Shown in pieces: positions 3,475 to 37,504 of a stretch of 64,000 nt of DNA. Made by a program: the position numbers and the translations under genes. The notes under the pieces were generated by a model that did not search any database, was not told the origin of the DNA, and saw only the letters and a program-made list of their open reading frames with translations. This DNA comes from an uncultured Candidatus Saccharibacteria bacterium (lineage in GTDB: Bacteria > Patescibacteriota > Minisyncoccia > Phycocordibacterales > SW-6-46-9): contig CAZHOI010000002.1 in the NCBI GenBank assembly GCA_964534365.1, positions 8,138 through 72,137 on the forward strand. Reading direction: 5' to 3'. The stretch's first letter is position 1, and each line of letters starts with the position of its first letter.

Positions 3475-3894
3475 CTAATTTGATTTTAATAGTCTTTTTG
3501 GCAAATTTTTGTAGCGATCTTTACCTACATAACTCGGCAACCCCATCCGACTAAAAGTCTCGATTAGTTTCCACATTTCATCTCGGGCTTTTTTCTTGTC
3601 CCATAACTTCACTAAATCGTCAAACCTCCCTGATTCCAGGTCAACTTGTAGTCGTTGAACTGTTTGTATTGTTACGCTACACATTTTCGAAATTTTATAA
3701 CTTGACAACCCATCGCCAATCAAAAAAATAATCGACAAACGCTTGGCCAACATAATGCGCTCGGTATCTGTTAACAAACTTCTTACCGCTATTGAAGTAT
3801 TTGATTTTGATAGAGTGTCCAACCAATTGCTAAAATTTTTATCTAAAGTAAATTGCTGTTTATCAGAAAGCTTTTTCTTTGATACGTGAGGCAT
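3475..3894 (-). CDS. TrpR-like (YerC/YecD family) helix-turn-helix regulatory protein
   Basis: 139 aa; ...LTDTERIMLAKRLSIIFLI..GLSSYKISKMCSVTIQTVQR... resembles the Trp-repressor-related fold. Confidence 0.55.
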   Translation of the reverse strand: MPHVSKKKLSDKQQFTLDKNFSNWLDTLSKSNTSIAVRSLLTDTERIMLAKRLSIIFLIGDGLSSYKISKMCSVTIQTVQRLQVDLESGRFDDLVKLWDKKKARDEMWKLIETFSRMGLPSYVGKDRYKNLPKRLLKSN

Positions 3895-3908
3895 ATTATA
3901 TATAATAC
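3893..3908. promoter_or_regulatory. AT palindrome ATATTATATATAATAC overlapping the start codon of the TrpR-like gene; a shorter copy is CTATATATAATAC at 3958-3970
   Basis: Seen in the sequence; same motif as 3312-3327. Confidence 0.35.
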
Positions 3909-4021
3909 CATTGTACCAAATGTTTATTTGAAATGAATTTCATAAACTTATGTAGTGCTATATATAATACTAAAATTCTAATCATAATTTAGTCTTATAT
4001 ACATTAGCTTTCTTTAAAAAT

Positions 4022-5449
4022 CTAGCCCAAAGATTTATAATGCTTTATAGCCACTTCTCTTTCTTCTTTATGACTTACTATTGGTTTTGGGTAATTTGTC
4101 CCCTCGAGGGCAATATCAAGTTCTTCATCTGACATTTCTCCTAGTTTATGAAGTACTTTACATTCAACATCTTTTAACTCGGGGATATATTTTTTAATAT
4201 ACAAACAATTTTTATCAAATTTTTCTTGCTGGGTCCAGGGATTAAATATTCTAAAATATGGTGCCGAGTCCGCGCCTGTCGAGGCCGCCCACTGCCACCC
4301 GCCATTATTATTAGCAGGATCATAATCAACCAAATGATTAGCAAACCAGCGCTCGCCATCGCGCCAATCCAAATGTAAATCCTTAGTTAGAAATGATGCC
4401 ACTATCATGCGCACGCGATTGTGCATCCAACCATCTCGCAATAATTGACGCATTCCAGCATCAATGATAGGAAATCCAGTCATACCCTGTTGCCACCTCT
4501 CTAGTAATTCATCTTTTGAGACATTCGATGTTTCGACTCCTGCCCAGTCCATACCCTGATATTTCTCTTGAAACTCATCACCCAAAACATAGGGAAAAGC
4601 ATAGAGTAAATGTAAATAAAAGTCCCGCCAATACAGCTCGGTAATATATTTGGAAGTCGGACTTCCAAATACTTCAATTGCATGCCAATAAACCTCGCGA
4701 ATCGATAAGGTGCCGAATGTTAAGTGCCCGGATATTTCGCTAGTTGAAATCTCTCCAGGATAATGGCGGTTGGCACGATAATCTGTCAAATCTTTGAGCT
4801 GGGCTAATTTGTTCAGCCCATGTGATCGCCCTCCTATCTGACGTGATGAATTACCCCCTGGATCCAGATCGCTCAAGATTGTTTTATTTGCTAGTAGGCC
4901 GCTTTGCGTTGTAATCAGATTTGCAGCACTAAACTTTGCCGGTTTGGCAACAGTTTGATTTATCGCTTTGCGTTTAAATGGGGTAAAAACTTTATAAGGC
5001 TGACCATCGTTTGTCGCCACCGATCCGGGTGCGGTTAATAAAACGTCAGCGAAAGTCACCAAATCAATCTCTTTACTGTCTATAACCGTTTTAATATTAG
5101 CATCACGTTGCAAGGCATATGGGGTATAGTCATTATTAAAATACACAGCCGCACATTTTTGCTCGACCGCTAAACGAGGAATCTCTTCCCAGGGCAATCC
5201 TTGTAAAAAATGTAACTTTGAACCTTTCTTTTGTAACTCCTCATATAGCTCTCGCAGTGACTCAATTAAAAATCGAAAGCTATTTTCGCCAAAGTAATCA
5301 TTTTGCTGTTTATCATATTGCGCTGGATCAAAACAAAATACTGGGATCACCTCTTGTGAATCTTCGCATGCTTTTATCAAAGCCGTATTGTCCTCTAGGC
5401 GATAATCGCGACGAAAAACAAATAGTGATTTTATATATTTTTTACTCAC
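4022..5449 (-). CDS. phrB: Deoxyribodipyrimidine photolyase (cryptochrome/photolyase family)
   Basis: N-terminal photolyase domain (FVFRRDYRLEDNTAL); C-terminal FAD-binding motifs WQQGMTGFPIIDAGMRQL...GWMHNRVRMIVASFL...NNGGWQWAASTGADSAPYFRIFNP. Confidence 0.9.
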   Translation of the reverse strand: MSKKYIKSLFVFRRDYRLEDNTALIKACEDSQEVIPVFCFDPAQYDKQQNDYFGENSFRFLIESLRELYEELQKKGSKLHFLQGLPWEEIPRLAVEQKCAAVYFNNDYTPYALQRDANIKTVIDSKEIDLVTFADVLLTAPGSVATNDGQPYKVFTPFKRKAINQTVAKPAKFSAANLITTQSGLLANKTILSDLDPGGNSSRQIGGRSHGLNKLAQLKDLTDYRANRHYPGEISTSEISGHLTFGTLSIREVYWHAIEVFGSPTSKYITELYWRDFYLHLLYAFPYVLGDEFQEKYQGMDWAGVETSNVSKDELLERWQQGMTGFPIIDAGMRQLLRDGWMHNRVRMIVASFLTKDLHLDWRDGERWFANHLVDYDPANNNGGWQWAASTGADSAPYFRIFNPWTQQEKFDKNCLYIKKYIPELKDVECKVLHKLGEMSDEELDIALEGTNYPKPIVSHKEEREVAIKHYKSLG

Positions 5450-9053: not shown

Positions 9054-11036
<1,983 letters not shown>

Positions 11037-11065
11037 TTATTAATAGTATACGGTTGTTAGTCAGG

Positions 11066-11112
11066 TTTTTTCAAAAAAAAGAACCGCACTCCATGCCCCA
11101 TTGGAGTGCGGT
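11066..11112 (-). terminator. Rho-independent terminator (hairpin ACCGCACTCCA-n7-TGGAGTGCGGT followed by a T-run on the minus strand)
   Basis: Inverted repeat 11083-11112; the A8 run at 11073-11080 is a U-run on the minus transcript; sits at the left edge of the GC-rich island. Confidence 0.6.
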
Positions 11113-11121
11113 GCGGGTACT

Positions 11122-11307
11122 TCATCGGGCAAGCGGCCCGACAGACGTTACTGCTACCAGGTACAGAAACAGTGCCAGGAGCGCGATAGCGCGACCAGCA
11201 TTAGTTCGAAGTACCCAATCTAACAGTTTGCCGGTTTTGGATATTATCCAGTCTTTGCAGTCTGCGCAAAGTGCAGTCCAAAGGACTTGCATTTCTGGAT
11301 TACGCAT
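11122..11307 (-). CDS. Small hypothetical protein with a hydrophobic C-terminus, inside the GC-rich island
   Basis: 61-aa ORF only; composition matches the island. Confidence 0.25.
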   Translation of the reverse strand: MRNPEMQVLWTALCADCKDWIISKTGKLLDWVLRTNAGRAIALLALFLYLVAVTSVGPLAR

Positions 11308-11526
11308 GATTCTAGGGGAAAGGACAAACCACGAGACGGGGCCGCGTATGGCCGGGCTTCATAATCAACTCGAAGCTGGTGAAACCCTGACTAATTGCGG
11401 TCGGATCAGCAGGCTAGCTGGCCAGGTGGCTTGATCTTAATATAGCAAATTAAGCGTTGTAACAAAATACCCCTAAACCAAATCCAAATGGTCAAGGGGT
11501 CGGATCAAAAGAACAGAAGGAACATG

Positions 11527-11964
11527 CTATTCCAACACCTCGTGCTGGGGTGGGACTAATCTCAACTGAACGCAAACCGGGTGGTCGTATTGCGGTGCAA
11601 TGCCCACCGGCTGACCGTCCAAATAAATTATCGCTTTCGGATCAATAATTTGGAAACGATCCCCTAACCACAGTCCGGACGCATCCGGCAGATTTAGCAA
11701 CACCCAATCATATCCAGGGGCAGAAACTTGAACTTCTGGCTGGCTGCGCCAGGCCAGCTGCACCAGCGTTCGATCATAGCAACGCACGCCCGCGATAATG
11801 TAGCGATGACGCAATTCAGATGGAGTCACTTCCTCCAGCCTGGCTTCGGAACTACTATCGTCCCATTGATAGATCAGCTTTGCAGCCGAGGGCTGTTGAT
11901 CGTTAGCGCTATTGGTAGCACACCCGCATAGCAGTAAGGTGGTTAAACAGATGATCGTTTTCAT
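11527..11964 (-). CDS. Putative lipoprotein (signal peptide plus Cys) within the GC-rich island
   Basis: N-terminus MKTIICLTTLLLCGCATNS; about 55% GC versus about 38% background. Confidence 0.5.
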   Translation of the reverse strand: MKTIICLTTLLLCGCATNSANDQQPSAAKLIYQWDDSSSEARLEEVTPSELRHRYIIAGVRCYDRTLVQLAWRSQPEVQVSAPGYDWVLLNLPDASGLWLGDRFQIIDPKAIIYLDGQPVGIAPQYDHPVCVQLRLVPPQHEVLE

Positions 11965-11965
11965 G

Positions 11966-12175
11966 TTAACGGCCAGAAGGGGTTGTGGTTGTATCGGCGG
12001 AGAGCTTTTCTATATAAGCTCTTTTCTCTTTATTAACATTAACTAGGTTTGTTCGCTCGGTAGCGATAGCATATTTAGCACAAAACGGAAAAAACCATAA
12101 AATAAATGCAAGTCCTAATGCATACACTGGAATAGTGCAATACAGCAACTTTGCTGCCTCGGCTAACTTATCCAT
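11966..12175 (-). CDS. Small membrane protein (hypothetical)
   Basis: 69-aa ORF with one hydrophobic helix; start abuts the stop of the lipoprotein gene. Confidence 0.3.
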   Translation of the reverse strand: MDKLAEAAKLLYCTIPVYALGLAFILWFFPFCAKYAIATERTNLVNVNKEKRAYIEKLSADTTTTPSGR

Positions 12176-12977: not shown

Positions 12978-12996
12978 CCCTGGGTGACTGTCACCC
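12978..12996. repeat. REP-like palindrome CCCTGGGTGACTGTCACCC (same family as the RAYT-flanking repeats)
   Basis: Identical core to 27401-27418. Confidence 0.6.
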
Positions 12997-13159
12997 CCTT
13001 CTCACCCCCTTCTTTAGTAATAAGATAAGGATAATAAAAAATCCCATTGCTATACGTAGTAACAACAGGCTTCTACACTTTCTATATCTTTTTCATATTA
13101 CCCAGCACCACTCTTTTAGCAAGAGTGGTGCTGGGTCGTTCGTCTTTGACCTTGGCCTA

Positions 13160-15223
13160 CTAGCGCACTATCGTCAGTCGCTGATTGATCGGCGGCTGAC
13201 CGTCCACGATCAAGCGGACAAAGTAGACCCCCGGTGCGACGTCCGTGAGGTTCAGTGGGTGCTCGGAAGCGCCCACTGGTACCAGACCGCGAACCTTAGC
13301 CACCTGACGGCCGAGGCCATCAAATACCTGGAGGTCCATCAGGGTCGAGGTCAGCACCTCAATGACAGCCGTCACCGGACCCTGGGTAGGGTTGGGCTGA
13401 AGCCGTAGCGCAAGCGCCATTGCTTCGGGCCCATCTTCATCAGGGGTAGCATATACCACCTGCTGGAAAGCAGATGGTGCCGTGACTAACTCGTCCTTCC
13501 AGTCGCGGAAAAGCGGCTGGATAGTGACGTTGCACGCCTGGCCATCGCGGACAGTAGGACCTTCTAGCGGCAATGCATAAACTACCACATCAGGATCGCG
13601 CCTGGCAGTCGAGTGGTCCTGATCAGTGACCGCAAGCGGTCCGATCAAGAACGTGTCACCACAGGTAATCGTGGCATCGAATCGCTCGACCAGCGTGTTG
13701 CTGGAGGTGAACGATAGAGACCCTACTCCATCAGCAGTGAAATCGAGCGAGACCGAAGCCTCGTCAATTTGTGCCCCGGGCGGGGTTGCCGGCAGCAGGT
13801 TAACTGGTGCCGTAATCCGCGTGCCTTCCAGAACCTGACGGTCCTCATAAGTGCCACGACCCCGGGCCACACACGATAGGCTGGCCTGCTGTGCGCCCAG
13901 TCCCAGTCGCGAGAACTGGAAGGTCAGTGTAGTGTCGTCATCCGTCACCCAGCGATCCTGCAGTTCGCGTCCGACGATCAGGCTGATCTGACCCTGGTCA
14001 TTTTCAAACGTGCACTCCAGGTCGTTGACCTGGCGCTGACGATTGATTGTGACCTTGGCCTCGACGATTGCTTCCCCAAAGGGATCAATCGCCTCGAGCC
14101 CAGATAGCTCGGCACCGGGCGCGATGATCTCCACGAACAAGTCCGACAATCTAGACGTACCGCTGACGCGGTGACGACCGATTGTACAAACCGATCCATC
14201 CGACTGCACTTCATAGCCATTGCTGGATTGAAACGCAGCGCCGACCCAAACGTGCACTGAATCGGTTGTCACCTCTGACAGGTTAAAGACGTCGCCGTAG
14301 GGGGCAACGTCGCCATCAAGGCGCGGGATCAGCTGGCGGAACGGATCATTATGCTTAGACTGAACACCAGGGGTGTTCGGGTACAGCACTTGACCATTAG
14401 GATCAACTACCACCAGATGACAGGCCAGGGTCGAGCAATGAAGGTTTAGCCAGATCTGGGATCGCTGATCAGCTGTGTAGCCACTTAGATCCACAGTGAA
14501 CACCTGTCGCTCGACATCTCCTTCGACTCGCTCGAAATTCGGGTCATCAAACCGCGCCAGTACCCCACCGACCAGATTAGGACGGACAGTTGGCCCGTCG
14601 CTCGAGCAGCTCATGTCCCTAATGGGGAGCTCGATCACTCTGGGCGCTACCCGCGAGTCAACCCACATGGTGTGGGTGTCATCAGGAGTAGGGCCAAAGC
14701 CGGGGCCGGTTAGGACCTGGGTAGTTTGTGGGTCGTAGTCAACCCCTTCAATTCCCGTTGCTACCACCAGATCCTCGCAAGCGGGGACGTACTGGTGAAT
14801 TAACGGGAAGTTCATATTTGAAAGGTTGCGGGTCCAGGTACCGCTGGGTAGACTCTGGCCTGTTACCGTATCCGTCCCATTGACCGACCATAACCAAGAT
14901 GTATAAGATCCGCCGGGCTGAGATCCCAATCCCCCAGCTTCCATCGCCAGACGATACAATCGTCCGGTTGAACAGTCGCCCATCATCCGGACGATATCAA
15001 CATCCTGGCGCAGGCCATCCGCATTGGTTTCAACGTCAAAGACAACCGTGCCAATCTGGGTCGCTGATCCAATGGTCGGCGCCTGATTGACGAACGGGGC
15101 AATGTCGCCTGATTCCTCCCAGATCTGCGTGTGCAGATCCGAGTTGTTCCCCTGCGAGAGGGCGAGGTTGTTGGTAAGCATGGCGAACATTCCTGCCGCC
15201 AGTGCGATCATGAAACGTGCCAT
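13160..15223 (-). CDS. Secreted protein with a T9SS (Por-secretion) type-A C-terminal sorting domain; about 60% GC
   Basis: Signal peptide MARFMIALAAGMFAML; C-terminus ...PNPTQGPVTAV..LQVFDGLGRQVAKV..LNLTDVAPGVYFVRLIVDGQ..RLTIVR matches the Por_Secre_tail consensus. Confidence 0.75.
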   Translation of the reverse strand: MARFMIALAAGMFAMLTNNLALSQGNNSDLHTQIWEESGDIAPFVNQAPTIGSATQIGTVVFDVETNADGLRQDVDIVRMMGDCSTGRLYRLAMEAGGLGSQPGGSYTSWLWSVNGTDTVTGQSLPSGTWTRNLSNMNFPLIHQYVPACEDLVVATGIEGVDYDPQTTQVLTGPGFGPTPDDTHTMWVDSRVAPRVIELPIRDMSCSSDGPTVRPNLVGGVLARFDDPNFERVEGDVERQVFTVDLSGYTADQRSQIWLNLHCSTLACHLVVVDPNGQVLYPNTPGVQSKHNDPFRQLIPRLDGDVAPYGDVFNLSEVTTDSVHVWVGAAFQSSNGYEVQSDGSVCTIGRHRVSGTSRLSDLFVEIIAPGAELSGLEAIDPFGEAIVEAKVTINRQRQVNDLECTFENDQGQISLIVGRELQDRWVTDDDTTLTFQFSRLGLGAQQASLSCVARGRGTYEDRQVLEGTRITAPVNLLPATPPGAQIDEASVSLDFTADGVGSLSFTSSNTLVERFDATITCGDTFLIGPLAVTDQDHSTARRDPDVVVYALPLEGPTVRDGQACNVTIQPLFRDWKDELVTAPSAFQQVVYATPDEDGPEAMALALRLQPNPTQGPVTAVIEVLTSTLMDLQVFDGLGRQVAKVRGLVPVGASEHPLNLTDVAPGVYFVRLIVDGQPPINQRLTIVR

Positions 15224-21538: not shown

Positions 21539-22390
21539 TTATTTAACGTAAATTCCCCCACTGGCGTCAATTACTACAAACTGATGATTGCCACTGGGAC
21601 GATCGGCGGTGTCAATTATGATCTCTACCCTTTCAACCTCGAAAATGTCTTCTCGATTGTTTATTAGGATCAAATCATCAGTACTTGAATTAAAATTATT
21701 GATATACTCTGGATCATTACTATAACCGCAGTTTTTAGCAGCAGATATTCTAGGCTGTAATAAAGGTCTAGAGTAAATTATAGACGGATTAAAGCTCGGT
21801 GTATCAGGCTCGATACAAAAGTCGGAATCCCCAATGTAGATTGGCGGCGTTGCACCGTGATAATCGTCTGAACAAAAGGTTGGATTAGATCCTTCACCAA
21901 AAAAACATACTTGCTTAACGACAAGAGGGCTATTCAATTTAATTGGGAAGATTCCATCTTGTTCGGACGAATCCGTATAATAACCATCTTCAATACTGTC
22001 GACAAATTGCACAAATTTAGCGTCGTGTTTGTTGGTTAAATCTAAGTATATACCACGATCATAATCACTATCTGCAGTTGTGACTAGCACATCAGTAGCT
22101 TGTGATTGCTGTTCGCGGAATAAAATAGCCAGTTCATGCGCGGCATTTTTCAGCCTGACACTCTTGTTGAAATCCTGCTGTGACACCACAATCACCCCGC
22201 CCAGCATGGCCATAATTGCGATTGACACCATTAACTCAACTACTGTGAATCCAGCCGATTCCGATTGGATATTTATCTCATTAGTTGAATGAAGGTATTT
22301 GGCTAGCCATTTAATCATATTATTTAATTTATTCATTGAACGCGGCGACACCAAGTTTATTAATCTCTTCGAATGGGACCCGGTATTCAA
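21539..22390 (-). CDS. Type IV pilin-like protein (minor pilin); true start probably an internal Met
   Basis: ...SAG|FTVVELMVSIAIMAMLGG; the ORF's 5' end overlaps the pilB 3' end. Confidence 0.7.
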   Translation of the reverse strand: MNTGSHSKRLINLVSPRSMNKLNNMIKWLAKYLHSTNEINIQSESAGFTVVELMVSIAIMAMLGGVIVVSQQDFNKSVRLKNAAHELAILFREQQSQATDVLVTTADSDYDRGIYLDLTNKHDAKFVQFVDSIEDGYYTDSSEQDGIFPIKLNSPLVVKQVCFFGEGSNPTFCSDDYHGATPPIYIGDSDFCIEPDTPSFNPSIIYSRPLLQPRISAAKNCGYSNDPEYINNFNSSTDDLILINNREDIFEVERVEIIIDTADRPSGNHQFVVIDASGGIYVK

Positions 22391-24068
22391 ACGCTTTTAA
22401 AATAGCGTCTTCGCGCATGGTTAACATCCCGTCGCGTCGGGCCGCATCATAGATCTCGCCCTCGTTCGGGTCTTTTAATAAGATCTCATCAATTTCGCGC
22501 GTCATACGCATTACTTCAAATACCGCTTGACGACCAGATGTGCCTTTGGGACAACGGGCGGTTGGTTCTATCCCAAGCACAAATTCAGGGTAGGTAATAT
22601 GACTACGATATTCTGGCGCCAGATCTTCGAATTCGCTATCAATAATTTTTTTGACTGATCCCTCAATCGGAATTTTACGCCCGGTACCTTTACAAATTTT
22701 TTGAATCAACCGCTGACCGATTGCCAATTTCAAAGTTGGTGCGATTAAATATGGGTCGACCCCCATGTCTACCAGTCGAGGGATTACGCCGGTTGCGGAA
22801 TTGGTGTGAATAGTAGACAGCACTAGGTGGCCAGTTAGAGCCGCCTGGACCGCTAGTTGCGCAGTTTCCTTGTCGCGAATCTCACCCACCATAATAATGT
22901 CGGGGTCTTGACGTAAAACGGTACGTAATCCCGAGGCAAAGGTATAGCCAATATCGCCATTAACGGCTGACTGCGAAACGCCAGGAATTTGATATTCGAC
23001 TGGGTCTTCTAGCGACAGGACGTTCTTGGTCTTGCGATCAACTTGTTCCAGCATGGTGTATAACGTAGTTGATTTACCTGATCCAGTCGGTCCCGAAATC
23101 AGAATTAATCCATAAGGTTCATCAATTGCATTTTTAATCAACTCCAGATTGCGCTGTGACAATCCCAGAGAAGTTAAATCGCTGACATTACGACTAGATT
23201 CTAATAATCGCATTACAATTTTTTCACCAAATGATGTGGGGAATGTCGAGACCCGAAAATCAATTTTATGACCATCAATATGGGCACTGAAACGACCATC
23301 TTGTGGTTTACGTTTTTCGTCAATTCGCAGATTTGCCAGAATCTTTACCCGGGCAACAACAGCGGCATGAGTAGCTGCCGGCAGAGCCAAACTTTGTTTA
23401 AGAGCACCATCAACTCGAAAACGAACCTTGGTTTCGGTTTCGTAGGGCTCGATATGAATATCAGAAGCATGATCTTCTTTGGCATGACGAATAATGGTAG
23501 CTACAATTTTAGTAACGGGGGCAGCATTAGCATCCGGTTCACTGTCAACTGCATTTTCAACTGGTTTATCAGGTTCAAGGATTAACTCGCCCTCTAATTC
23601 AGACAAGGCTGATCCAACTTCGTTAATTAATTGATCAACTGATCCGGTTGCCTGATCAAAATCCAATTTGGTAACTACTAGTATTTTGAACGATAGCCCT
23701 AGGGACGAGGTGATAAAGTCCATGACCTCGCGAGCCCCTTCGCTATGAGGATTAACAAATCCAACTACTAGTTCATGATCTTTTTTATCCAGGGGAATAA
23801 TGCTGTACAGTTCAACTGTTTTGGCTGGAACCATCTTCAAGACTTCTTCTGAGATACTGTTGCCTGTAATCCGCTTACCAGGGAAATTATAGAATTGAGA
23901 TTTTATTTCCAAAACTTGATCCTGGGTAATATTAATTTCATCAAAGGCAATCTCGTAGTAATCGCCCTTTTCTACTTCCGAGCGAACTGTACGGTATTGC
24001 TCGGGGGTCAAAAAACCTTTTTCATTGGCAAAATCTAGGATTGATAGTTGTGTTTCCAGTTCTACCAT
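22329..24068 (-). CDS. pilB: Type IV pilus assembly ATPase PilB (GspE family)
   Basis: N-terminal GSPII_E_N-like domain; Walker A GPTGSGKSTT; Asp/His boxes; C-terminal tetracysteine-like CxxC. Confidence 0.9.
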   Translation of the reverse strand: MVELETQLSILDFANEKGFLTPEQYRTVRSEVEKGDYYEIAFDEINITQDQVLEIKSQFYNFPGKRITGNSISEEVLKMVPAKTVELYSIIPLDKKDHELVVGFVNPHSEGAREVMDFITSSLGLSFKILVVTKLDFDQATGSVDQLINEVGSALSELEGELILEPDKPVENAVDSEPDANAAPVTKIVATIIRHAKEDHASDIHIEPYETETKVRFRVDGALKQSLALPAATHAAVVARVKILANLRIDEKRKPQDGRFSAHIDGHKIDFRVSTFPTSFGEKIVMRLLESSRNVSDLTSLGLSQRNLELIKNAIDEPYGLILISGPTGSGKSTTLYTMLEQVDRKTKNVLSLEDPVEYQIPGVSQSAVNGDIGYTFASGLRTVLRQDPDIIMVGEIRDKETAQLAVQAALTGHLVLSTIHTNSATGVIPRLVDMGVDPYLIAPTLKLAIGQRLIQKICKGTGRKIPIEGSVKKIIDSEFEDLAPEYRSHITYPEFVLGIEPTARCPKGTSGRQAVFEVMRMTREIDEILLKDPNEGEIYDAARRDGMLTMREDAILKAFEYRVPFEEINKLGVAAFNE

Positions 24069-24094
24069 AAATTACTAATTTTTAGTGTCACAAA

Positions 24095-24601
24095 TTAAAA
24101 CGAAGGTACATTCCCATTAAATGCCGGGACCTGATTATTTGAATTTGTTGCGGGTGCAGTTGAGTTTGGCGAATTAGTCGATGCTTGATTGGTTGAAGTC
24201 TGATTAGTCGCTTGTGTTGGGCTAGATTGTGGTACAAATGTGTTATTAGTTGGAATCGTGGTGTTTCGCTGCTCGATAATAACACGAGCATCAATTGGTG
24301 AAAAAGGATTAGAACGACCAGCTTCAATTTCACTTAATTCGACAGTGTTATCTTGCAATTGTTGAAATTCTGGATTATCTAGAACCTGAGCTTGTGATAA
24401 ATCTATTTGTTGCAATTGCTGGATTTGGTTTATAAATAATGTTTCCGACTGGGCCAGGTTTTGATCTATTGGCAAACCAGAGTCAACTACCAATTCGGAA
24501 TCTGTACGCGAAAAGGTATCGCCTATTGATGGCATTAGTACAATTAAGATGACAATAACAATTGCAACTGCACCGATTATAATTAAGTGTTTCTTTTTCA
24601 T
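24095..24601 (-). CDS. Bitopic pilus-assembly accessory protein (PilP-like?), Gln/Asn/Thr-rich tail
   Basis: N-terminal TM; GRSNPF motif; position between pilO and pilB. Confidence 0.4.
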   Translation of the reverse strand: MKKKHLIIIGAVAIVIVILIVLMPSIGDTFSRTDSELVVDSGLPIDQNLAQSETLFINQIQQLQQIDLSQAQVLDNPEFQQLQDNTVELSEIEAGRSNPFSPIDARVIIEQRNTTIPTNNTFVPQSSPTQATNQTSTNQASTNSPNSTAPATNSNNQVPAFNGNVPSF

Positions 24602-24614
24602 AACGTTTTATAGC

Positions 24615-25241
24615 TTAAGTTCCTAGCCAATAAGTTCGTAATACTACTTGGTAGTTGTTCAAATTGGTACCAGATTCGCTGTTTGCGTTTTCTGAATTGT
24701 CTACAGTCACAGATTGAATGTCAGTTAAGCGTAAATTATTTTCGAGACGGGTTAGAAAATTTTTAAATTCGTCATAGTTCCCGGTAGCTGACAAGGTCAT
24801 ATCTACTGAGGAATAATCAGCTCCTGACTGGATTGAAGAGGTGTCGTCGCCTGTGTCTTCGGAATTCTCACTATCAGAACTTTCGTTACTGGTGGTTGTG
24901 TCAGCAAAAGAGAATTCTTCGATTTCTATCCCGGTTGTATCAGCAATTGAAGACACTTCGATCGTTAGTCGAACTGTATCAATATTTCGCGGTAGAAACT
25001 TCTCGAGCCGATCTCTTTTTTGTGCATCAATTGATTCTAGCTGCTCTTGCAAATCATTTCTAAGTTCGGCTAATTCATCAGCTTGCTGGAGGGCGGTTTC
25101 ATAAGACTCGGCTTCGGCCTTTAGAGTTTGATAAACCTGGTACTCTGAGCGAGTATAAGACAGAGTCAAACCAATGGCTACAATTATTAAAACAATTGAA
25201 AGTATAAATTTATTCATAGATATTAATATTAACAGCTGCAA
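24615..25241 (-). CDS. pilO: PilO-like pilus assembly protein (TM plus coiled coil)
   Basis: N-terminal TM; coiled-coil region; synteny pilN-pilO. Confidence 0.55.
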   Translation of the reverse strand: MQLLILISMNKFILSIVLIIVAIGLTLSYTRSEYQVYQTLKAEAESYETALQQADELAELRNDLQEQLESIDAQKRDRLEKFLPRNIDTVRLTIEVSSIADTTGIEIEEFSFADTTTSNESSDSENSEDTGDDTSSIQSGADYSSVDMTLSATGNYDEFKNFLTRLENNLRLTDIQSVTVDNSENANSESGTNLNNYQVVLRTYWLGT

Positions 25242-25851
25242 CCGATTCGGGATTGTCCAATTGATTTTCTGATTGATCTAATAGGGCTAAATCAATTAGA
25301 AATGAATACTCAAAAGATATAAAATCTTCTTCGTTTCGATTAAATTCAGTAAAAATTGGATTGGAAATAAATGAGCTTTTAGTAAATTCGTCTGATTGCA
25401 AAGCTAAAGCCTCAAAATTATACGCTTCACCCTCGCCTGACACTTTAATAGTATTATTGTTGTCGTATCCTACCTGGGCGGTTTTTAACTGTACCGTAGT
25501 TAGAACATATGATTCGATTTCTTCAAATACCGGACTTATTTCCTGGTGTTGATTTAATAGCTGATTCACCGCCGCCAACCTTTTATCAAATCGATTTAGT
25601 TCAGCAATTTCTTCAGGAGCGTAAGTTTGTTTAGCATCACTTAACCTCGCTTGACGTTCGGCCAATTCGTCGGTGGCCAGATTTTTAAACAGAAATGAAA
25701 ACAAGGCTCCAGCAACCGCTAGTACAAAGATTACTGATGCAACAAATAAAGCGGCATTCAAATAAGCGCGAATTCGGTCAATATTACGCCGAGCGCTTTT
25801 TTTCTCATCTTGCTTTGGGATAAAGCTAGGAGTTTTTGGTTCAGAGCTCAT
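25210..25851 (-). CDS. pilN: PilN-like pilus assembly protein
   Basis: Short cytoplasmic N-terminus, single TM, periplasmic coiled coil; synteny. Confidence 0.55.
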   Translation of the reverse strand: MSSEPKTPSFIPKQDEKKSARRNIDRIRAYLNAALFVASVIFVLAVAGALFSFLFKNLATDELAERQARLSDAKQTYAPEEIAELNRFDKRLAAVNQLLNQHQEISPVFEEIESYVLTTVQLKTAQVGYDNNNTIKVSGEGEAYNFEALALQSDEFTKSSFISNPIFTEFNRNEEDFISFEYSFLIDLALLDQSENQLDNPESVAAVNINIYE

Positions 25852-25926
25852 GAGTCTAGCAATATCATACCACGCACATGTAAAACTAAATTACGGTTGT
25901 TAACAAGTTAAATATTTTGATACTGC

Positions 25927-26727
25927 CTATAGCAAGAAAAGGTTAAAATTATCCAACAAATCTAGTTTGGGAATACTGACAATTATATACCCGGTAATTA
26001 AGTATGGCCCAAATGGCACCGCTGACTTCATTCCCAACTGTTTGCCAGAAGACTGATTCGGCATAAGTTTCTGCCCCGCTAGAATAATTAGCGACACTGC
26101 AGCCCCAATCCAAAAAGCTAGTAATACCGCCGTCGCACCAGCCGATAGACCCAATAACCAGCCGATTGATAGTGATAGTGTCCCATCAGCAAATCCCATT
26201 CCTCGACCTTTGGTAATTGCCCATAATAACCAGAAAAATCCGGCTAAAATTGGTCCGGCTAGTAATTCCAAAACGGTTGGATAGGTTGGCAATAAATGGA
26301 TAGGATCAAAAAACAATAATAGAAAAGAAATAAGGATTAAAGGAAGAGATAGTTCGTGCGGAATAATAAATTGATCCAAATCAATTAATGCAATCATGAT
26401 CATTATCAACGCTATTATTGAACTTACGACAAATCCAGACCAGCTGGCAGCACTTAGCCAGATAGCAACTAATATTGCCGCTGTAGCGACCTCAACCAAG
26501 GGATAACGCGGTGATAATCGACTGTGACACGCCGAACATTTCCCCTGCTGCCATAACCACGACAATACAGGGATTAAATTTTTTGCCCGCAGGGTTTGTC
26601 CGCAGGTAAAACATTTAGATCGTCTGGCATTCTGCCGACTAGTCCCCCACCGCCCTGCGGTAGCATTTAAATACGACCCTACGATTAATCCAAATATTCC
26701 TATAAAAATAATTACCAGTAAGTCCAT
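25927..26727 (-). CDS. pilD: Prepilin peptidase/N-methyltransferase (A24 family)
   Basis: N-terminal TM; Zn-binding CFTCGQ...CSACHS motif; polytopic C-terminal domain. Confidence 0.85.
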   Translation of the reverse strand: MDLLVIIFIGIFGLIVGSYLNATAGRWGTSRQNARRSKCFTCGQTLRAKNLIPVLSWLWQQGKCSACHSRLSPRYPLVEVATAAILVAIWLSAASWSGFVVSSIIALIMIMIALIDLDQFIIPHELSLPLILISFLLLFFDPIHLLPTYPTVLELLAGPILAGFFWLLWAITKGRGMGFADGTLSLSIGWLLGLSAGATAVLLAFWIGAAVSLIILAGQKLMPNQSSGKQLGMKSAVPFGPYLITGYIIVSIPKLDLLDNFNLFLL

Positions 26728-26756
26728 TAATCCAACTTAACAGAAATACGGCAGCC

Positions 26757-26780
26757 CTAGGGGTGACAGTCACCCAGCGA
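26757..26780. repeat. REP-like palindrome GGGTGACAGTCACCC flanking the 3' end of the RAYT gene
   Basis: Perfect inverted repeat seen in the sequence. Confidence 0.7.
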
Positions 26781-26782
26781 GT

Positions 26783-27358
26783 TTATTTTTTTGAGGTATA
26801 ATTTTTTATATTTTCCTTCTCTGTTGTAGTCAGATTTCTGTTCAAATCTTCCAAATATGTAGTCGGTAGATCAATCGGTAAGTCATTGTCAACAATTTTG
26901 TATCTGGCAAATCTGCGATTATGCGCACTCCCCCATTTCCAATCTTCTGCCTTATCTACTAAATTTGCCCTTTTTGCATTTCGTTCAATATAGCGAAGTA
27001 GATTGTAAAAATACTTATCGTCTCTAATATGAAAAGATTTATAACGACCTTGGTATAAATGACCAAATCCCACTTGACTATACTTAGATTTAAACCTTTT
27101 AACGTGAGTATTGGTTAGTCGGCGCATAAAATTACCTAATTCACCATTAATTTGTGGTGACACTAAAAGGTGCCAATGATTAGGCATTACGCAAAAACCC
27201 AAGACTTTGACATTGAACAAATCTTTGGTTTCATCAATTAATAATAGAAATTCTTGATAATCATTATTATCTTTAAAAATTTTAATCTTGTTATTTGATC
27301 GATTTAATACATGATAATACTCGCCTGCAATATCTGTTCTAGGTAAGCGGCCCATCAA
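26783..27358 (-). mobile_element. IS200/IS605-type HUH Y1 transposase, REP-associated tyrosine transposase (RAYT)-like
   Basis: HUH motif VMPNHWHLLV; conserved N-terminal YHVLNRSNN; C-terminal catalytic Tyr region; flanked on both sides by REP palindromes. Confidence 0.8.
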
Positions 27359-27380
27359 TCTAATTATACAACATATTTTT

Positions 27381-27426
27381 AATACTGCTGGGTGACTACT
27401 GGGTGACTGTCACCCAGCAGTATTAG
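27381..27426. repeat. Compound REP: AATACTGCTGGGTGAC-TACTGGGTGACT-GTCACCCAGCAGTATT (16-bp perfect arms) at the 5' flank of the RAYT
   Basis: Seen in the sequence. Confidence 0.75.
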
Positions 27427-27779
27427 CAAGTTTCAAAGGTTGAGTTGGGATTGGTGCTAGTGACGCAAATTTGTTGATTACCTGATAACTGGGCGCTTAC
27501 CTGATAATGTTGGTTGGTGCTAGAGCAACTATAGTAATCAAAATTAATCGAAGACACGTAAGCCTCTTGAGCAATTTTTTCACAGACTCGATCATAATTG
27601 CCATTATTAACCTGATGTAACATAGCAATGGCTGGCACAGAGGATATAAAACTAATTAGGCGACTGTCTTCAGCATCCGCAATTGTTTGGACTGAGAAGA
27701 TGCTAAAAATAGCGACTATGCCCAGAATAAACAGCAGGGTCAGTAATTGCAGACTGGAACGAACGCTTTTACGAGTCAT
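27423..27779 (-). CDS. Small secreted Cys-containing protein (possibly a degenerate pilin-like protein)
   Basis: 118 aa; N-terminal hydrophobic helix LQLLTLLFILGIVAIFSIF; four Cys in the C-terminal half. Confidence 0.4.
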   Translation of the reverse strand: MTRKSVRSSLQLLTLLFILGIVAIFSIFSVQTIADAEDSRLISFISSVPAIAMLHQVNNGNYDRVCEKIAQEAYVSSINFDYYSCSSTNQHYQVSAQLSGNQQICVTSTNPNSTFETC

Positions 27780-27886
27780 TTATAGCCAAGTATAACCGAA
27801 GACTTTGACCATCCTTTAACCAGCCGTGGATAAAGTTGTGTGTTCGAAAATTATTATACAATGAACTTAGCAATCCGCTGGGTGAC

Positions 27887-27960
27887 AGTCAATTATTGTG
27901 TCACTTATTGCACTATCACCTATTGCAAAATTGTGGGTGGCTGTCACCCATTGCACCTTT
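27887..27960. repeat. Two degenerate REP copies (GCTGGGTGACAGTC at 27887-27900; GTGGGTGGCTGTCACCCA at 27943-27960) just downstream of pilin gene 2
   Basis: Seen in the sequence. Confidence 0.5.
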
Positions 27961-27964
27961 TGCA

Positions 27965-28459
27965 CTACAAACATTCTGCGACGACCCCAGTACCACCACC
28001 AGTCGCCTCGCCGGTTCCCCGATACCCTGATGAATCCGCACACCAATTTTGAGATATCCCATTTTCATCTAAATATTCTACAGATACTGCATACGAGCCT
28101 CCGTCCTCCCCTACTGCACATGTGGCCTCAATCCCTTCTGATTCTGCACCTAAAACAATTTCAGATACATTATATTCATTAGCTGTATCTGAGTTGAAGA
28201 TACTTATAGTATCACCAGTAGAATGGTCGCAAACCAATGGATCAGCAGCAACAGCTGTTCCAAACCCGCTGTTTTGACCGCGGTAAAATTCACTCTGACC
28301 AGTTAAGTTAGCTAATGATGCCTTAACTGCGGCTTCTGAACCACTACTCCTGGCATCGCCGAGTGACCCCAATACAATGCTACCAATAATTCCGATGATG
28401 GCAATTACTACCAATAATTCTAGCAAAGTAAACCCTTTTTTGTATATATCAACCTTCAT
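27965..28459 (-). CDS. pilA: Type IV major pilin (PilA-like), second tandem copy
   Basis: MKVDIYKKG|FTLLELLVVIAIIGIIGSIV: canonical prepilin leader, Glu5 and hydrophobic helix. Confidence 0.85.
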   Translation of the reverse strand: MKVDIYKKGFTLLELLVVIAIIGIIGSIVLGSLGDARSSGSEAAVKASLANLTGQSEFYRGQNSGFGTAVAADPLVCDHSTGDTISIFNSDTANEYNVSEIVLGAESEGIEATCAVGEDGGSYAVSVEYLDENGISQNWCADSSGYRGTGEATGGGTGVVAECL

Positions 28460-28477
28460 TATTTATTAAGTATACAA

Positions 28478-28501
28478 CAAAAAAACCACTGAAAGTGGTT
28501 T
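28478..28501 (-). terminator. Intrinsic terminator between the two tandem pilin genes (AACCACTTTCAGTGGTT plus U-run on the minus strand)
   Basis: 7-bp stem with T-run immediately after the first pilin stop. Confidence 0.6.
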
Positions 28502-28519
28502 AAATGTAATTACTATGAA

Positions 28520-28972
28520 TTAGATTGTACAGTCTGCGTCACCAGATCCAATTCCAACAGCAGCTTGTTCGCCTCCGTAACCTGATGAGTCAATACAGTA
28601 GAAATCACCGCCCAATAATGGAGAAGATATGGCATACCCAGTACCTGTTGAAACACATGTAGCGGTTCCACCACCGTTTTGTGAATTAACTTGAGTTATC
28701 GCATTATTAAAAGCGTCAGTAGCAAACATGTCGGTATTACAACCAACACCCGCAGCTCCGTAAGTATTATCACCCACACCACTATAGTATAGCTCTGCCT
28801 GAGCTCGCATGTTGTTTAGAGATGATTGAACAGATGCATCTGAACCAGAGGTTCGAGCTGAGTTCAATGAAGCCAGAACAACAGAGGCCAAGATTCCGAT
28901 GATGGCAATTACTACCAACAGCTCGATCAAGGTGAATCCCTTGTCCTTAGCTTTAAAGTTAAGAGTTTTCAT
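28520..28972 (-). CDS. pilA: Type IV major pilin (PilA-like), first and promoter-proximal copy, with C-terminal disulfide loop
   Basis: MKTLNFKAKDKG|FTLIELLVVIAIIGILASVV; C-terminal Cys pairs. Confidence 0.88.
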   Translation of the reverse strand: MKTLNFKAKDKGFTLIELLVVIAIIGILASVVLASLNSARTSGSDASVQSSLNNMRAQAELYYSGVGDNTYGAAGVGCNTDMFATDAFNNAITQVNSQNGGGTATCVSTGTGYAISSPLLGGDFYCIDSSGYGGEQAAVGIGSGDADCTI

Positions 28973-28994
28973 TTAATTAATTAATTATATTTTT

Positions 28995-29035
28995 AATATT
29001 GAAGTGCATTTAACACTATCAATTCGAATTGATCA
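28995..29035 (-). promoter_or_regulatory. Candidate sigma70-type pilin promoter (TTGATA-18 nt-TATTAA; -10 about 20 nt from the ATG) overlapped by a perfect 14-bp palindrome TCAATTCGAATTGA (29019-29032)
   Basis: Read on the minus strand upstream of pilA at 28972. Confidence 0.4.
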
Positions 29036-29106
29036 TGTTTAATGATCTGATATTAAGTATACGGGGTTTATAAACATGTCCAGAACTCGACTGTGTATAA
29101 CATTGC

Positions 29107-29148
29107 GTAGCACGTAGCACGTAGCACGTAGCACGTAGCACGTAGCAC
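29107..29148. repeat. Heptanucleotide tandem repeat (GTAGCAC)x6, about 135-175 bp upstream of the major pilin start
   Basis: Six perfect copies seen in the sequence. Confidence 0.9.
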
Positions 29149-29479
29149 TATAAACAATAGTTCAAACCGATAAATTAACGACAAATAGTTGGTAGCATTT
29201 AATTCCAGATTGATGAAGTGATAAATTTTGGCAAGAGGCTGCTGAAATATGAGGCATCTAGAAATTTGTGCCGGAGCCTTGTATTAATAAGGTGAACAAA
29301 CAAATTACTGATAAAAATGACAATATTTATACCAGATTGATGAAGTTCTTGATAGCGAGCTAATGTAAGGATAGGAGATTTGGATAAAATGCGCGGCGCT
29401 AGGTTTTTTGGACTAGAGCGGTATTCATTTATACCGCGATATAACAAAAAACTGCAGTAACAAAGCAGTTTGCCAAATC

Positions 29480-30682
29480 TTAAATGCCGGTGGAGATGTT
29501 GTAAATTGGGAACAATACCGCCGCCAACAACGTCCCTACCCCGATTCCTAAAAATACTATCATCGCTGGTTCGATCAAATCAACCAACGAATCCACCGCC
29601 CGGGTTACCTCGTCTTTGTAGTATTTCGACAAAGTACCCAGAATAGTGCCGATTTTACCACTTTCTTCGCCAACACGGATCATTTGAACCAATACCCCTG
29701 GGATATAATCCGGGTAATTTGACAATGCATCTGAGAGCGACTTCCCAGACCTGACTTCTTCGATTGAATCAGAAATTATACCAGCATAAACTTTATTGCC
29801 GATGACTTCTCGGGAAGTTTCCAAGGCATGAAGCATCGAGATACCAGATGAGAGCATGGTATGCATATTATCAGCAAACCGCGCCAGATAAATTTTACGA
29901 TATAGATTGCCGACAAAAGGAGTATGTAGGGCAAATACCGTTAGACGCTCGCGGTTAGTCGGTTGACGCAAAAAGTAAATTAATCCAGCGACAGCAAGTA
30001 TTAGCAGCGTCAGCAGAATAAAACCATAATTGACTAGAAAGGCACTGGTTCCTAATACAATTTTAGTATAAACCGGCAAATCCTGACCTGATTCAGTCAA
30101 AATTACCCCAATTTTAGGAATAATGTAGGTCAGCATCAAAATCATTACGATAAAGAAGGTAAAGACCACAAATACCGGGTAAGTTAAAGCGCTTCGAGCC
30201 TTGCTGGCCAGTTCATAATTGCGCTCGAGGTATTCGGCCAGGTATTGAAAGGTTTGTGGCAGACGACCAGTCTCTTCGCCCGAGGCGATCATATTGACAT
30301 AAAATTTGGAAAATACTTTAGGGTGTTTAGCCAGACTGACCGAGAGTTGCTGGCCGGCTTCCAGATCAGCGACAATTTCTTCAAGGATTTCTTTGAGGCG
30401 AGGATTGTCAACTTCTTCGGACAATAACGAGAAAATTCGCAGGGTTGAAATATTGGCGTTAAACAGTGTGGCCAGCTGTCGCGATAATAGTACGACGTCT
30501 TTGGTTTGAACGCGGTTTATTATATTAAATTCCAGCTCGCCCAGGGATTTTTTTTCTGTGATTTTAGAGACTACTAAACCAGATCCACGCAGAGCACGCA
30601 ATGCTGCCTCGCGGTCATCAGCTTCGTAGACCCCTTTTGTAGGAGCGCCGTCAGCAGTAGTAGCAATGTATTCAAATTTCAT
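29480..30682 (-). CDS. pilC: Type IV pilus assembly platform protein PilC (GspF family)
   Basis: Two GspF repeats, three TM segments; typical length and synteny. Confidence 0.9.
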   Translation of the reverse strand: MKFEYIATTADGAPTKGVYEADDREAALRALRGSGLVVSKITEKKSLGELEFNIINRVQTKDVVLLSRQLATLFNANISTLRIFSLLSEEVDNPRLKEILEEIVADLEAGQQLSVSLAKHPKVFSKFYVNMIASGEETGRLPQTFQYLAEYLERNYELASKARSALTYPVFVVFTFFIVMILMLTYIIPKIGVILTESGQDLPVYTKIVLGTSAFLVNYGFILLTLLILAVAGLIYFLRQPTNRERLTVFALHTPFVGNLYRKIYLARFADNMHTMLSSGISMLHALETSREVIGNKVYAGIISDSIEEVRSGKSLSDALSNYPDYIPGVLVQMIRVGEESGKIGTILGTLSKYYKDEVTRAVDSLVDLIEPAMIVFLGIGVGTLLAAVLFPIYNISTGI

Positions 30683-30685
30683 AAA

Positions 30686-31750
30686 TTATTTTAGGTAGCG
30701 CTGAAAAATAGCGGGATTATGGGCATAACGCATGGCAGCGGATTCTTCGACCTGGTTATTTTTTACCAGCTGGGCCAAGGATCGATCCATGTCAATCATA
30801 CCCTGATCCATGCCAGTTTCGATTACCGACCGCAATTCATGGGTGCGTTCATCACGAATCAAGTTGGCTACGGCAGCATTGTTAATTAGCAACTCATAGG
30901 CTGGCACTACACCTGATTCGTTGCTGGGGATTAACCGTTGGGACAAGATACCCGACAGCGCGGCTGACAACTGTGATCGAATTTGGCGTTGTTGACCGGT
31001 CGGAAATACGTCAATAATTCGATCAATAGTTTGCGGGGCGTCGTTTGTATGCAAGGTCGCAAATACCAAGTGACCAGTTTCGGCTGCAGTAATGGCCGAT
31101 GAAATCGTATCCAGATTACGCAGCTCACCCAACATGATTACGTTGGCATCCTGTCGGAATGCCGAATGCAGCGCCTGGTCAAAACCATCAGTATCAAGAC
31201 CAACTTCACGCTGATCAATAATTGATTCTTTTTGCACGTGAATATATTCGATTGGGTCCTCGATAGTCAGAATGTGTTCTTGTCTGGTGGTATTGATTAG
31301 ATCAATCATCGCCGCCAAGGTAGTTGTTTTACCCTGACCGACTGGTCCTACTACTAGAAAGAATCCTTGTTTTTGAAGGGCAAAATCTTTAAGGATCTCG
31401 GGCAAGCCAAGTTCTGATAAAGAAGGAATTTTGCGTGGGATATAGCGCAAAGCGATGCCTACCCCACCACGTTGAATAAAGGCATTACCCCGAAATCTGG
31501 TAATATCATCGGCTGAATACGAATAATCAAGCTCTTTATCTTCTAGGAAGCGGTCTTTTTGTTCTTTGGATAGCATTAGGGTTAAAAACTCCAAAGTATC
31601 ACTGCCGCTAAGCACCGGAAGATTTTGTAATGGGATCAGGGTTCCGGCGACTCGAATAGTAGGATGTCTGCCGATCGAAAAATGAACGTCAGAAGCCGCT
31701 TGCGAACGGACAATCTCGATTATTTGATCTAGTGTCTGTTTGTAGTTCAT
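30686..31750 (-). CDS. pilT: Twitching-motility retraction ATPase PilT
   Basis: Walker A GPVGQGKTTT; PilT-specific GMIDMDRSLAQL region; about 350 aa. Confidence 0.9.
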   Translation of the reverse strand: MNYKQTLDQIIEIVRSQAASDVHFSIGRHPTIRVAGTLIPLQNLPVLSGSDTLEFLTLMLSKEQKDRFLEDKELDYSYSADDITRFRGNAFIQRGGVGIALRYIPRKIPSLSELGLPEILKDFALQKQGFFLVVGPVGQGKTTTLAAMIDLINTTRQEHILTIEDPIEYIHVQKESIIDQREVGLDTDGFDQALHSAFRQDANVIMLGELRNLDTISSAITAAETGHLVFATLHTNDAPQTIDRIIDVFPTGQQRQIRSQLSAALSGILSQRLIPSNESGVVPAYELLINNAAVANLIRDERTHELRSVIETGMDQGMIDMDRSLAQLVKNNQVEESAAMRYAHNPAIFQRYLK

Positions 31751-33439: not shown

Positions 33440-33590
33440 ATACCTTTATATTTGAATAGTTTTAGATATTTTCATCTTGTAAACCTTGTCACACCAGTTT
33501 AGGGTTCGCTATTGCCTCCAGGCGGACTGTGTCCGCCGTAGGGAGCTATGGCGACCGAAGCCAGTGAGTGAGGCCTGCCTTCCGCAGGCA

Positions 33591-33646
33591 GGGATTGGAA
33601 CCCTCGGTACCAATAAAGGTACGCTTCCTTAGCAGGGAAGCCCATT
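33591..33646 (-). pseudogene. Truncated tRNA-Ser-like fragment (anticodon arm, variable arm and T-arm only). It is a 56-nt paralogue of the adjacent tRNA-Ser 3' portion with compensatory changes in the variable-arm stem
   Basis: Identical 23-mer CTTCCTTAGCAGGGAAGCCCATT; variable stem GGTACC/GGTAC versus AGGCC/GGCCT; lacks the acceptor 5' strand and D-arm. Confidence 0.55.
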
Positions 33647-33665
33647 TTTACCCGACACACCAATG

Positions 33666-33752
33666 CGGAGGAAGAGGGATTCGAACCCTCGAGGCCCGTA
33701 AAGGCCTACTTCCTTAGCAGGGAAGCCCATTCGACCGCTCTGGCATTCCTCC
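33666..33752 (-). tRNA. tRNA-Ser (anticodon GCT), class II with long variable arm
   Basis: Minus-strand reading GGAGGAATGCCAGAGCGGTCGAATGGGCTTCCCTGCTAAGGAAG-(long var arm)-CGAGGGTTCGAATCCCTCTTCCTCCG; anticodon loop CT-GCT-AA. Confidence 0.75.
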
Positions 33753-37409: not shown

Positions 37410-37504
37410 ACTTCATTAATAAAGCTTGTCAACTGTCCCTGGCACCCTTTTCATGGCAGAGGTTACTTTAAAGCTAATTCTTCTCTTTCATAAAAGTCAC
37501 TACG

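Follow-up and report, generated by a model that had tools for sequence, protein, structure and literature searches.

What is the gene of a transposase-like protein, bracketed by palindromes, doing in the middle of a type IV pilus operon of a small bacterial genome? The question arises from a stretch of 64,000 nucleotides of an uncultured Candidatus Saccharibacteria bacterium (contig CAZHOI010000002.1, positions 8,138 to 72,137; hereafter the window), in which such a gene, here called RAYT-1, lies just ahead of the prepilin peptidase gene pilD. We consider it likely that RAYT-1 is a chromosomal, single-locus, vertically inherited nuclease of the type of the REP-associated tyrosine transposases (RAYTs; REP, repetitive extragenic palindrome), that its cognate palindrome is a low-copy repeat, REP1, and that the two are probably one of two such pairs in the organism. 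The argument starts from these features of the window:

26783..27355, minus strand: RAYT-1, a RAYT-type Y1 HUH gene of 190 aa (Pfam Y1_Tnp, invariant residues, AlphaFold2 model, Foldseek).
26760..26777, minus strand: downstream REP1 copy, CTGGGTGACTGTCACCCC on the minus strand, oriented opposite to the upstream copy.
27380..27425, plus strand: compound REP1 hairpin upstream of RAYT-1, with stem TAATACTGCTGGGTGAC / GTCACCCAGCAGTATTA (sequence and folding).
12980..12997, plus strand: distal REP1 copy, the same 18-mer as the RAYT-downstream copy, intergenic and 14 kb off.
27878..27950, no strand assigned: decayed REP1 doublet between pilin164 and orfX, resembling a REP doublet forming a hairpin (REPIN) (sequence and folding).

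The original prediction took a 191-aa open reading frame (ORF) at this place for a Y1 HUH transposase and proposed a profile search against PF01797 as a check. That identity is well founded. The protein matches Pfam Y1_Tnp (PF01797) with E=1.6e-17 and 64.2 bits (cut-off 23), over profile positions 6-121 of 121, and it contains the motifs YHVLNRS and PNHWHLLV. As delimited mechanically, the ORF (26783-27358, minus strand) has 191 aa and a TTG start; the ATG at 27355 (190 aa, MGRLPR...) is the likelier start and the one used in the gene call of the Joint Genome Institute (JGI) and in all homologues. The catalytic set consists of H60-W61-H62 (HUH), the nucleophile Y122 and N126 (Y-x-x-x-N). No substitution of H60, H62, Y122 or N126 occurs in three alignments (15, 65 and 64 sequences), a distant acidobacterial relative included, and the HUH and Tyr/Asn positions align to HMH and Y-I-Y-I-N of 4ER8, the structure of E. 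coli TnpA_REP.

A Y1_Tnp domain protein would also fit an autonomous IS200-type element of ~670 bp, with hairpins at its ends, that had recently jumped into the pilus operon; the TnpA proteins of the IS200/IS605 family (IS608, ISDra2, IS200) have the same catalytic core as RAYT-1 and palindromes near their gene ends. Structure separates the two kinds of enzyme clearly, the sequence profile barely. The top Foldseek match of the AlphaFold2 model of RAYT-1 (pLDDT 88, pTM 0.86) is 4ER8_A (E=8e-9), with an alignment of 166 columns that covers the whole chain, C-terminal extension included, whereas the ISDra2, IS608 and IS200 transposases match ~1000-fold worse (E ~1e-5) and over a core of 106 columns; the top 28 matches in the PDB are all Y1 transposases. 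By sequence, 4ER8 ranks first in the PDB both for the single protein and for the family profile, with a small margin in the latter (1.3e-5 vs 2.9e-5 for ISDra2 TnpA), a near-equality that speaks for the IS200-type reading. On its model, RAYT-1 is nearer to a RAYT than to an IS200/IS605 TnpA, and nearer in particular to the monomeric TnpA_REP with its C-terminal extension.

The palindromes belong to one repeat, REP1, written here as CTGGGTGACNGTCACCC, with the core CTGGGTGAC-T-GTCACCCAG. Palindromes of the form GGGTGAC(n)GTCACCC had been predicted immediately beside the gene, with further copies both distal and degenerate, and this is the arrangement found: inverted copies at 26760-26777 and 27380-27425, a distal copy at 12980-12997 and two decayed copies within 27878-27950. 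Over the whole window, GGGTGACNGTCACCC has three exact matches (12982, 26761 and 27401) and one with a single mismatch (27935). Could a chance palindrome merely stand beside an unrelated ORF, a concern that the original prediction had itself raised? Nothing but the short core (15 nt) speaks for coincidence. Against it, four matches with at most two mismatches were counted where 0.07 were expected, none of 100 shuffles reached four, the 18-mer CTGGGTGACTGTCACCCC is identical at 12980-12997 (plus strand) and 26760-26777 (minus strand), and the same architecture recurs in eight other loci. We give coincidence a negligible probability. All four matches are intergenic. A CTGGGTGAC 9-mer at 13944, a half-site with GTCACCCAG read as the arm, was set aside as chance; a gene's coding sequence contains it, and the second arm is missing.

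The downstream copy lies 5 nt past the RAYT-1 stop and 32 nt ahead of the pilD start, and a 17-nt inverted repeat, GGGTGACAGTCACCCAG, links both flanks. The compound copy, which overlaps the TAA stop (27423-27425) of the upstream gene orfX, has a 17-bp stem and a 12-nt loop (DNA -18.3 kcal/mol, z=-8.4; RNA -29.4 kcal/mol); its core, CTGGGTGACTGTCACCCAG, occupies 27399-27417, and in its loop 11 nt of the 5' arm are repeated in tandem (27388-27398). A CT dinucleotide precedes the stem in every REP1 copy. In the doublet, ~0.5 kb from the RAYT-1 module, the left copy CTGGGTGACAGTCA has lost its 3' arm and the right copy GGGTGGCTGTCACCC has one mismatch; the two are ~55 bp apart, have opposite central bases (A/T) and enclose a spacer with three TCACyyATTGCA repeats. 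No second REPIN doublet was found in the accessible DNA. Past the distal copy, TCACCCCCTTC stands twice in tandem (12991-13012), so that 11-nt duplications of one REP arm occur at two sites, the other being CTGGGTGACTA|CTGGGTGACTG at 27388-27409. Cleavage and rejoining may have left them as a footprint, or they may stem from slippage at hairpins.

How widespread is the gene? A RAYT had been thought unusual for a reduced genome like those of the candidate phyla radiation (CPR), an expectation that the homologues contradict. A protein search returned 3159 of them (E<=1e-3); for the best 120, identity to RAYT-1 is 43-58%, apart from one copy of 99% identity that belongs to the same population, and all those named among these 120 are Patescibacteria (Minisyncoccia, Paceibacterota, Uhrbacteria, Andersenbacteria, Parcubacteria). 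The named relatives of pilD are likewise Parcubacteria or Paceibacterota. An exhaustive search gave 24,745 clusters (50% identity) at E<=1e-3 and 9,052 at E<=1e-10.

We compared the genomic contexts of eight homologues. Exact inverted repeats bracket the gene in L008 (21 nt), L009 (23 nt), L154 (13 nt) and L005 (12 nt), as the 17-nt repeat does in the window. The flanking repeats are lineage-specific; a core GG[T/G]GnCAGnnAC, with a 5-7-bp stem and a CAG apex, is common to all eight aligned loci. This hairpin stands just 5' of a TAnAAT box near the start codon, a box likewise kept in eight of eight. In all, nine homologue loci keep a related hairpin beside the promoter, and six loci, the window counted, have an inverted downstream copy as well; the flank comparison revealed no clear downstream copy in L155, L156 or L161. 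The box of the window is:

27363..27368, minus strand: TATAAT -10-like box, 7 nt before the RAYT-1 ATG (sequence and homologue alignment).

Its position suggests that the RAYT-1 mRNA is leaderless or near-leaderless. Beside the gene there are also iterated half-sites, namely GGCACCC four times in L005 (10640-10700), GACCCCATTTAC three times in L009 (10660-10740) and AGGTGTCAGCCAC three times in L156 (9890-9970), arrays that the 11-nt duplications of the window resemble and that may have the same kind of origin. In L161 (6001-7081), the RAYT-like gene P0036 is directly followed by a 124-aa Peptidase_M24 fragment, and a 242-aa Peptidase_M24 gene (3809-4537) lies ~1.5 kb upstream of it; the L161 element may have been associated with a duplication or disruption at this place.

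A hairpin at the -10 box in all eight aligned loci, where the downstream copy can be missing, invites another explanation: a co-opted Y1 enzyme that mobilises nothing, with palindromes that are operators or other regulatory or mRNA-stabilising hairpins, and extra copies that are relics of an IS200-like past. The very low copy number in the accessible sequence fits this, as do REP copies that are the same in the four assemblies compared, and RAYTs of Groups 1, 4 and 5 are single-copy and without REPINs (Bertels, Gallie & Rainey 2017, PMC5581495; bioRxiv 10.1101/2021.07.10.451892). The dispersed copies are harder to accommodate. The distal and the gene-proximal 18-mer do not differ, the doublet at 27878-27950 is REPIN-like, and there is a second repeat type in the window, REP2, written as GGTGCCAGGGAC:

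37434..37451, no strand assigned: REP2 copy, TGTCCCTGGCACCCTTTT, intergenic between recG and tRNA-Ile, an exact 18-mer of the repeat flanking the RAYT gene on contig L005.

On L005, a contig from the samples that also yielded the window, REP2 flanks a paralogous gene, RAYT-2 (P0004). The two contigs have equal GC, and their tetranucleotide correlation (r=0.977) is above that between the halves of the window (0.968). Conversely, contig L154 of a sibling organism (sample SRR24908210) carries a RAYT-2 orthologue and, near its end, a REP1-like TAGGTGACAGTCACCCT, which matches the repeat flanking the pilus-operon RAYT of L008. Such identity of the exact REP2 18-mer in the window, and of the REP1-like copy on a sibling contig, is hard to obtain without recent copying, and we regard a co-opted enzyme that mobilises nothing as unlikely. 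The REP2 copy in the window and the REP1-like copy on L154 make it probable, as far as these sequences go, that the organism carries two RAYT/REP pairs that are paralogous and that each has a small number of dispersed copies. Their number is small: this contig has one distal REP1 copy in ~72 kb, its extension beyond the window start (L167, 8.2 kb) contains no REP copies, and extrapolation from about one distal copy per 90 kb suggests the order of ten REP copies per ~1-Mb genome.

Has the gene itself moved? It lies among these genes of the pilus operon:

25927..26727, minus strand: pilD, prepilin peptidase (Pfam A24_N_bact and Peptidase_A24).
27423..27779, minus strand: orfX (orf118), a pilin-like small protein of 118 aa that precedes pilD in siblings (blastp).

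The gene order on the minus strand is pilin150, pilin164, orfX, RAYT-1, pilD, and the 695-bp gap between orfX and pilD is filled by the compact module 26760-27425. Among long contigs, two have the pilD genes most similar to that of the window; the small ORF before pilD is variably present in them, there is no Y1 gene, and the gap ahead of pilD measures 58 bp (L157, pilD 57% identical) and 29 bp (L160, pilD 49% identical). The RAYT/REP module is therefore an insertion between the pilin genes and pilD, as the original prediction had it and as the comparison with siblings that it proposed confirms. We ruled out that orfX is part of the insert; homologues precede pilD in L008 (L008_127, blastp 1e-9) and L160 (L160_129, 3e-3). 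A split of pilD in the JGI annotation (40 aa + 190 aa; L001 10742-11429) was likewise dismissed as a gene-calling artefact, because the DNA is identical to that of assemblies in which one 266-aa gene is called. Nor are the flanking hairpins intrinsic terminators: neither has a T-tract, and a terminator scan of 26728-27425 was empty. Since no terminator-like site follows either flanking hairpin, co-transcription into pilD is plausible.

The operon as a whole (22329-31750) is rearranged relative to L157 and L160. Its order is pilM-pilT-pilC-pilins-orfX-RAYT-pilD-(three small genes)-pilB in the window and pilM-(three small genes)-pilB-pilT-pilC-pilins-pilD in the siblings. A 7-nt tandem repeat, CGTAGCA in ~6 copies, lies between pilC and the first pilin gene (29106-29154).

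A compact module in a gap whose sibling sites are empty is what a recent jump of an IS200-type element would leave. The ends of the module, however, are inverted copies of one palindrome rather than a left-end and a right-end hairpin that differ and lie on one strand. The exact RAYT-1 protein was found on six contigs from several samples, in one context throughout (three of the six have the same DNA over 25800-28600), and a second copy is absent from the ~93 kb made up by the window, the 8.2-kb extension and L005. In L008, a 57%-identical RAYT stands in the pilus operon, in a slot different from that of the window, where pilD is 53% identical, which points to long residence. The wider family behaves alike: P0036 has a single context on 23 contigs, the RAYT-2 group (P0004, P0003 and P0020, 55-69% mutually identical) lies downstream of a homologous large protein in every case, and RAYT-2 synteny is conserved among L005, L154 and L156. 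Between L005 and L156, the RAYT-2 orthologues are 55% identical, RecA 65% and FtsK 47%, by these sequences a housekeeping-like rate of divergence. Relatives are nearly absent from plasmids (13 of 72,556, all <=36% identity) and phage records (1 of 50,697), and none was found among 2.9 million viral contigs. IS200/IS605 TnpA proteins are obligate dimers with distinct end hairpins on one strand, multicopy and often on mobile elements, none of which was seen here, and we hold such an element to be very improbable. In contexts, synteny and the plasmid, phage and viral collections there is no sign of mobility of the gene; single context, vertical descent and rarity on plasmids and phages are the criteria by which RAYTs are told from insertion sequences in PMC5581495. 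We did not retain the RAYTs of the window and L008 as a tight orthologue pair, given 57% identity to each other vs 52-58% to the RAYT-2 group; a common operon, a C-terminal truncation and the core GTGACnGTCAC are the sole support for their orthology.

Does the same repeat accompany RAYTs elsewhere? The pattern CTGGGTGACTGTCACCC was scanned in genome contigs and metagenome contigs, two collections of which neither contains the source organism. Metagenome matches are always single per stretch, and genome matches are mostly scattered singletons near the estimated chance number, with two exceptions. In the Acidobacteria metagenome-assembled genome (MAG) RH-18aug17-384 (CANIVU01), the same 17-mer is a multi-copy REP (at least 32 copies) with the consensus cAGACAAwTCCTGGGTGACTGTCACCCAGGAwTTGTCyG, and in Sporosarcina sp. 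JAI121 (NZ_JACCCL01) the same core has at least nine copies. An acidobacterial locus (L038) holds a RAYT-like gene with HUH and YVERN and the palindrome on both sides. This pair, which has the identical 19-nt core flanking a RAYT-like gene, is an independent positive control; it differs from the window in proteins that are ~25-28% identical and in a REP that is a 39-nt palindrome of at least 32 copies. No RAYT was found in the Sporosarcina loci retrieved. It may be recorded besides that an identical 19-nt core, CTGGGTGAC-T-GTCACCCAG, centres the REPs of two unrelated phyla with different outer stems (L017-L089).

To which known systems does the pair come closest? E. coli TnpA_REP (RayT/YafM; 4ER8; Messing et al. 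2012, PMC3479197) has, like RAYT-1, a Y1 HUH fold with a C-terminal extension, the HUH and Y-x-x-x-N motifs and a gene bracketed by inverted hairpin copies, and CT, the E. coli cleavage site, stands before each REP1. It differs in sequence (~20% identity), in needing a bulge in the stem, where that of REP1 is a perfect palindrome, and in REPs that number in the hundreds, compared with apparently ~10 (extrapolated) for REP1. With the Group 2 and 3 RAYT/REPIN systems of enterobacteria and Pseudomonas the window has in common inverted REP pairs that flank the gene and a REPIN-like doublet nearby, and Pseudomonas, like probably this organism, has more than one RAYT/REP pair per genome; those systems have hundreds of REPINs and the window one distal copy per ~90 kb. 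The RAYTs of Groups 1, 4 and 5 (PMC5581495) are single-copy, chromosomal and of broad phyletic spread, as RAYT-1 appears to be, and their flanking 16-mers occur 12-31 times per replicon. The ~10 extrapolated copies resemble Groups 1 and 4 (12-14) and not Groups 2 and 3 (57-140); the comparison with Groups 1-5 was made on published descriptions.

Several observations weigh against reading the locus as a RAYT with a cognate REP. The NCBIfam RAYT equivalog NF047646 is the sole NCBIfam match and aligns over the full length, with 66.4 bits against a cut-off of 80, a score that would place RAYT-1 outside the curated, mostly proteobacterial equivalog set; RAYT-1 is RAYT-like by fold and motifs, though no equivalog of that set. 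No GTAG tag like that of the E. coli REPs is conserved in REP1, and the orientation of this near-perfect palindrome rests on its central base and one or two flanking bases. One distal copy of each REP type was found in the ~93 kb attributable to the organism, and L005 is assigned to the same genome by shared samples, GC and tetranucleotides, without physical linkage. Finally, four assemblies over the RAYT-1 locus differ by one base, a substitution inside the RAYT gene, and no recent REP movement is visible among them. The "classic" REP/RAYT arrangement of the original prediction thus stands as to the inverted flanking copies and the copies elsewhere, and falls short in the single distal copy in ~72 kb and the NF047646 score.

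Some features of the contigs bear on neighbouring matters. The distal REP1 copy lies ~165 bp past the stop of a 687-aa ORF (13160-15223, minus strand) of 54-61% GC against a background of ~40%, which has a weak, sub-threshold match to a type IX secretion system C-terminal sorting domain; in a CPR-like genome this gene appears foreign. Directly past its stop is a perfect hairpin with a 16-bp stem, ACCCAGCACCACTCTT/AAGAGTGGTGCTGGGT (13100-13136); both it and the compound REP1, in its outer arm, contain TGCTGGGT. GC is also raised in a second patch (11000-12000), which contains a 145-aa lipoprotein-like ORF (11527-11964). Two independent assemblies of the same population (L167 and L168, position 1) end at window position ~11473, on the border of the high-GC region; the stretch between 11.5 and 15.3 kb may therefore vary among strains or be a junction made in assembly. 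Two tRNA-Ser(GCT) calls (33580-33752) overlap by 5 nt and have an 82%-identical 57-nt repeat in common; Rfam recognises only the second. The 16S rRNA gene, ~1 kb beyond window position 1 (L167 11468-13160), measures 1693 nt against a model of 1533 positions, with ~160 nt extra.

How might the pair work? TnpA_REP is a monomer that binds the REP hairpin on single-stranded DNA and cleaves at CT, and its C-terminal tail is autoinhibitory (PMC3479197). By analogy, RAYT-1 would bind the REP1 hairpin on single-stranded DNA and cut near it, possibly at the CT preceding each copy. Y122 would make the 5'-phosphotyrosine link while H60 and H62 hold the metal, and the strands would then be rejoined. REP copies in intergenic DNA could in this way occasionally be seeded or removed, the gene itself no longer moving. 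The promoter-proximal hairpin is plausibly also an autoregulatory operator, a role suggested by its persistence in loci that lack other copies. In the mRNA of the operon, the hairpin past orfX (-29 kcal/mol) is not followed by a U-tract; it would allow transcription to run on into RAYT-1 and pilD and might shield the upstream pilin message.

Two family members lie inside pilus operons. A bolder proposal, which we consider decidedly unlikely, is an old, domesticated RAYT-like clade throughout the Patescibacteria, with a CAG-apex promoter hairpin, a small REP population of slow turnover and often two orthogonal pairs per ~1-Mb genome, in which the enzyme may have a host function; the processing of single-stranded DNA imported by the pilus and the shaping of the operon mRNA would be candidates.

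To our knowledge, RAYT/REP systems have been studied almost solely in proteobacteria. No account of them in CPR/Patescibacteria came up in our full-text literature searches, and CPR genomes go unmentioned in the sections of PMC5581495 that were consulted. The locus is of interest for the likely presence of two pairs in a small genome and for a family-wide hairpin core, in a group without a published description that we could find. We conclude that RAYT-1/REP1 belongs to the known RAYT/REP kind and that the family is common in these small genomes. Calls of a "transposase" of RAYT type in CPR MAGs should not be taken for evidence of active insertion sequences. One or two pairs at fixed loci appear to be retained in genomes that measure ~1 Mb and have little intergenic DNA, and a hairpin conserved across relatives that are ~50% identical fits retention of RAYTs for the benefit of the host. 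The CPR pairs would give a compact system for asking what RAYTs do.

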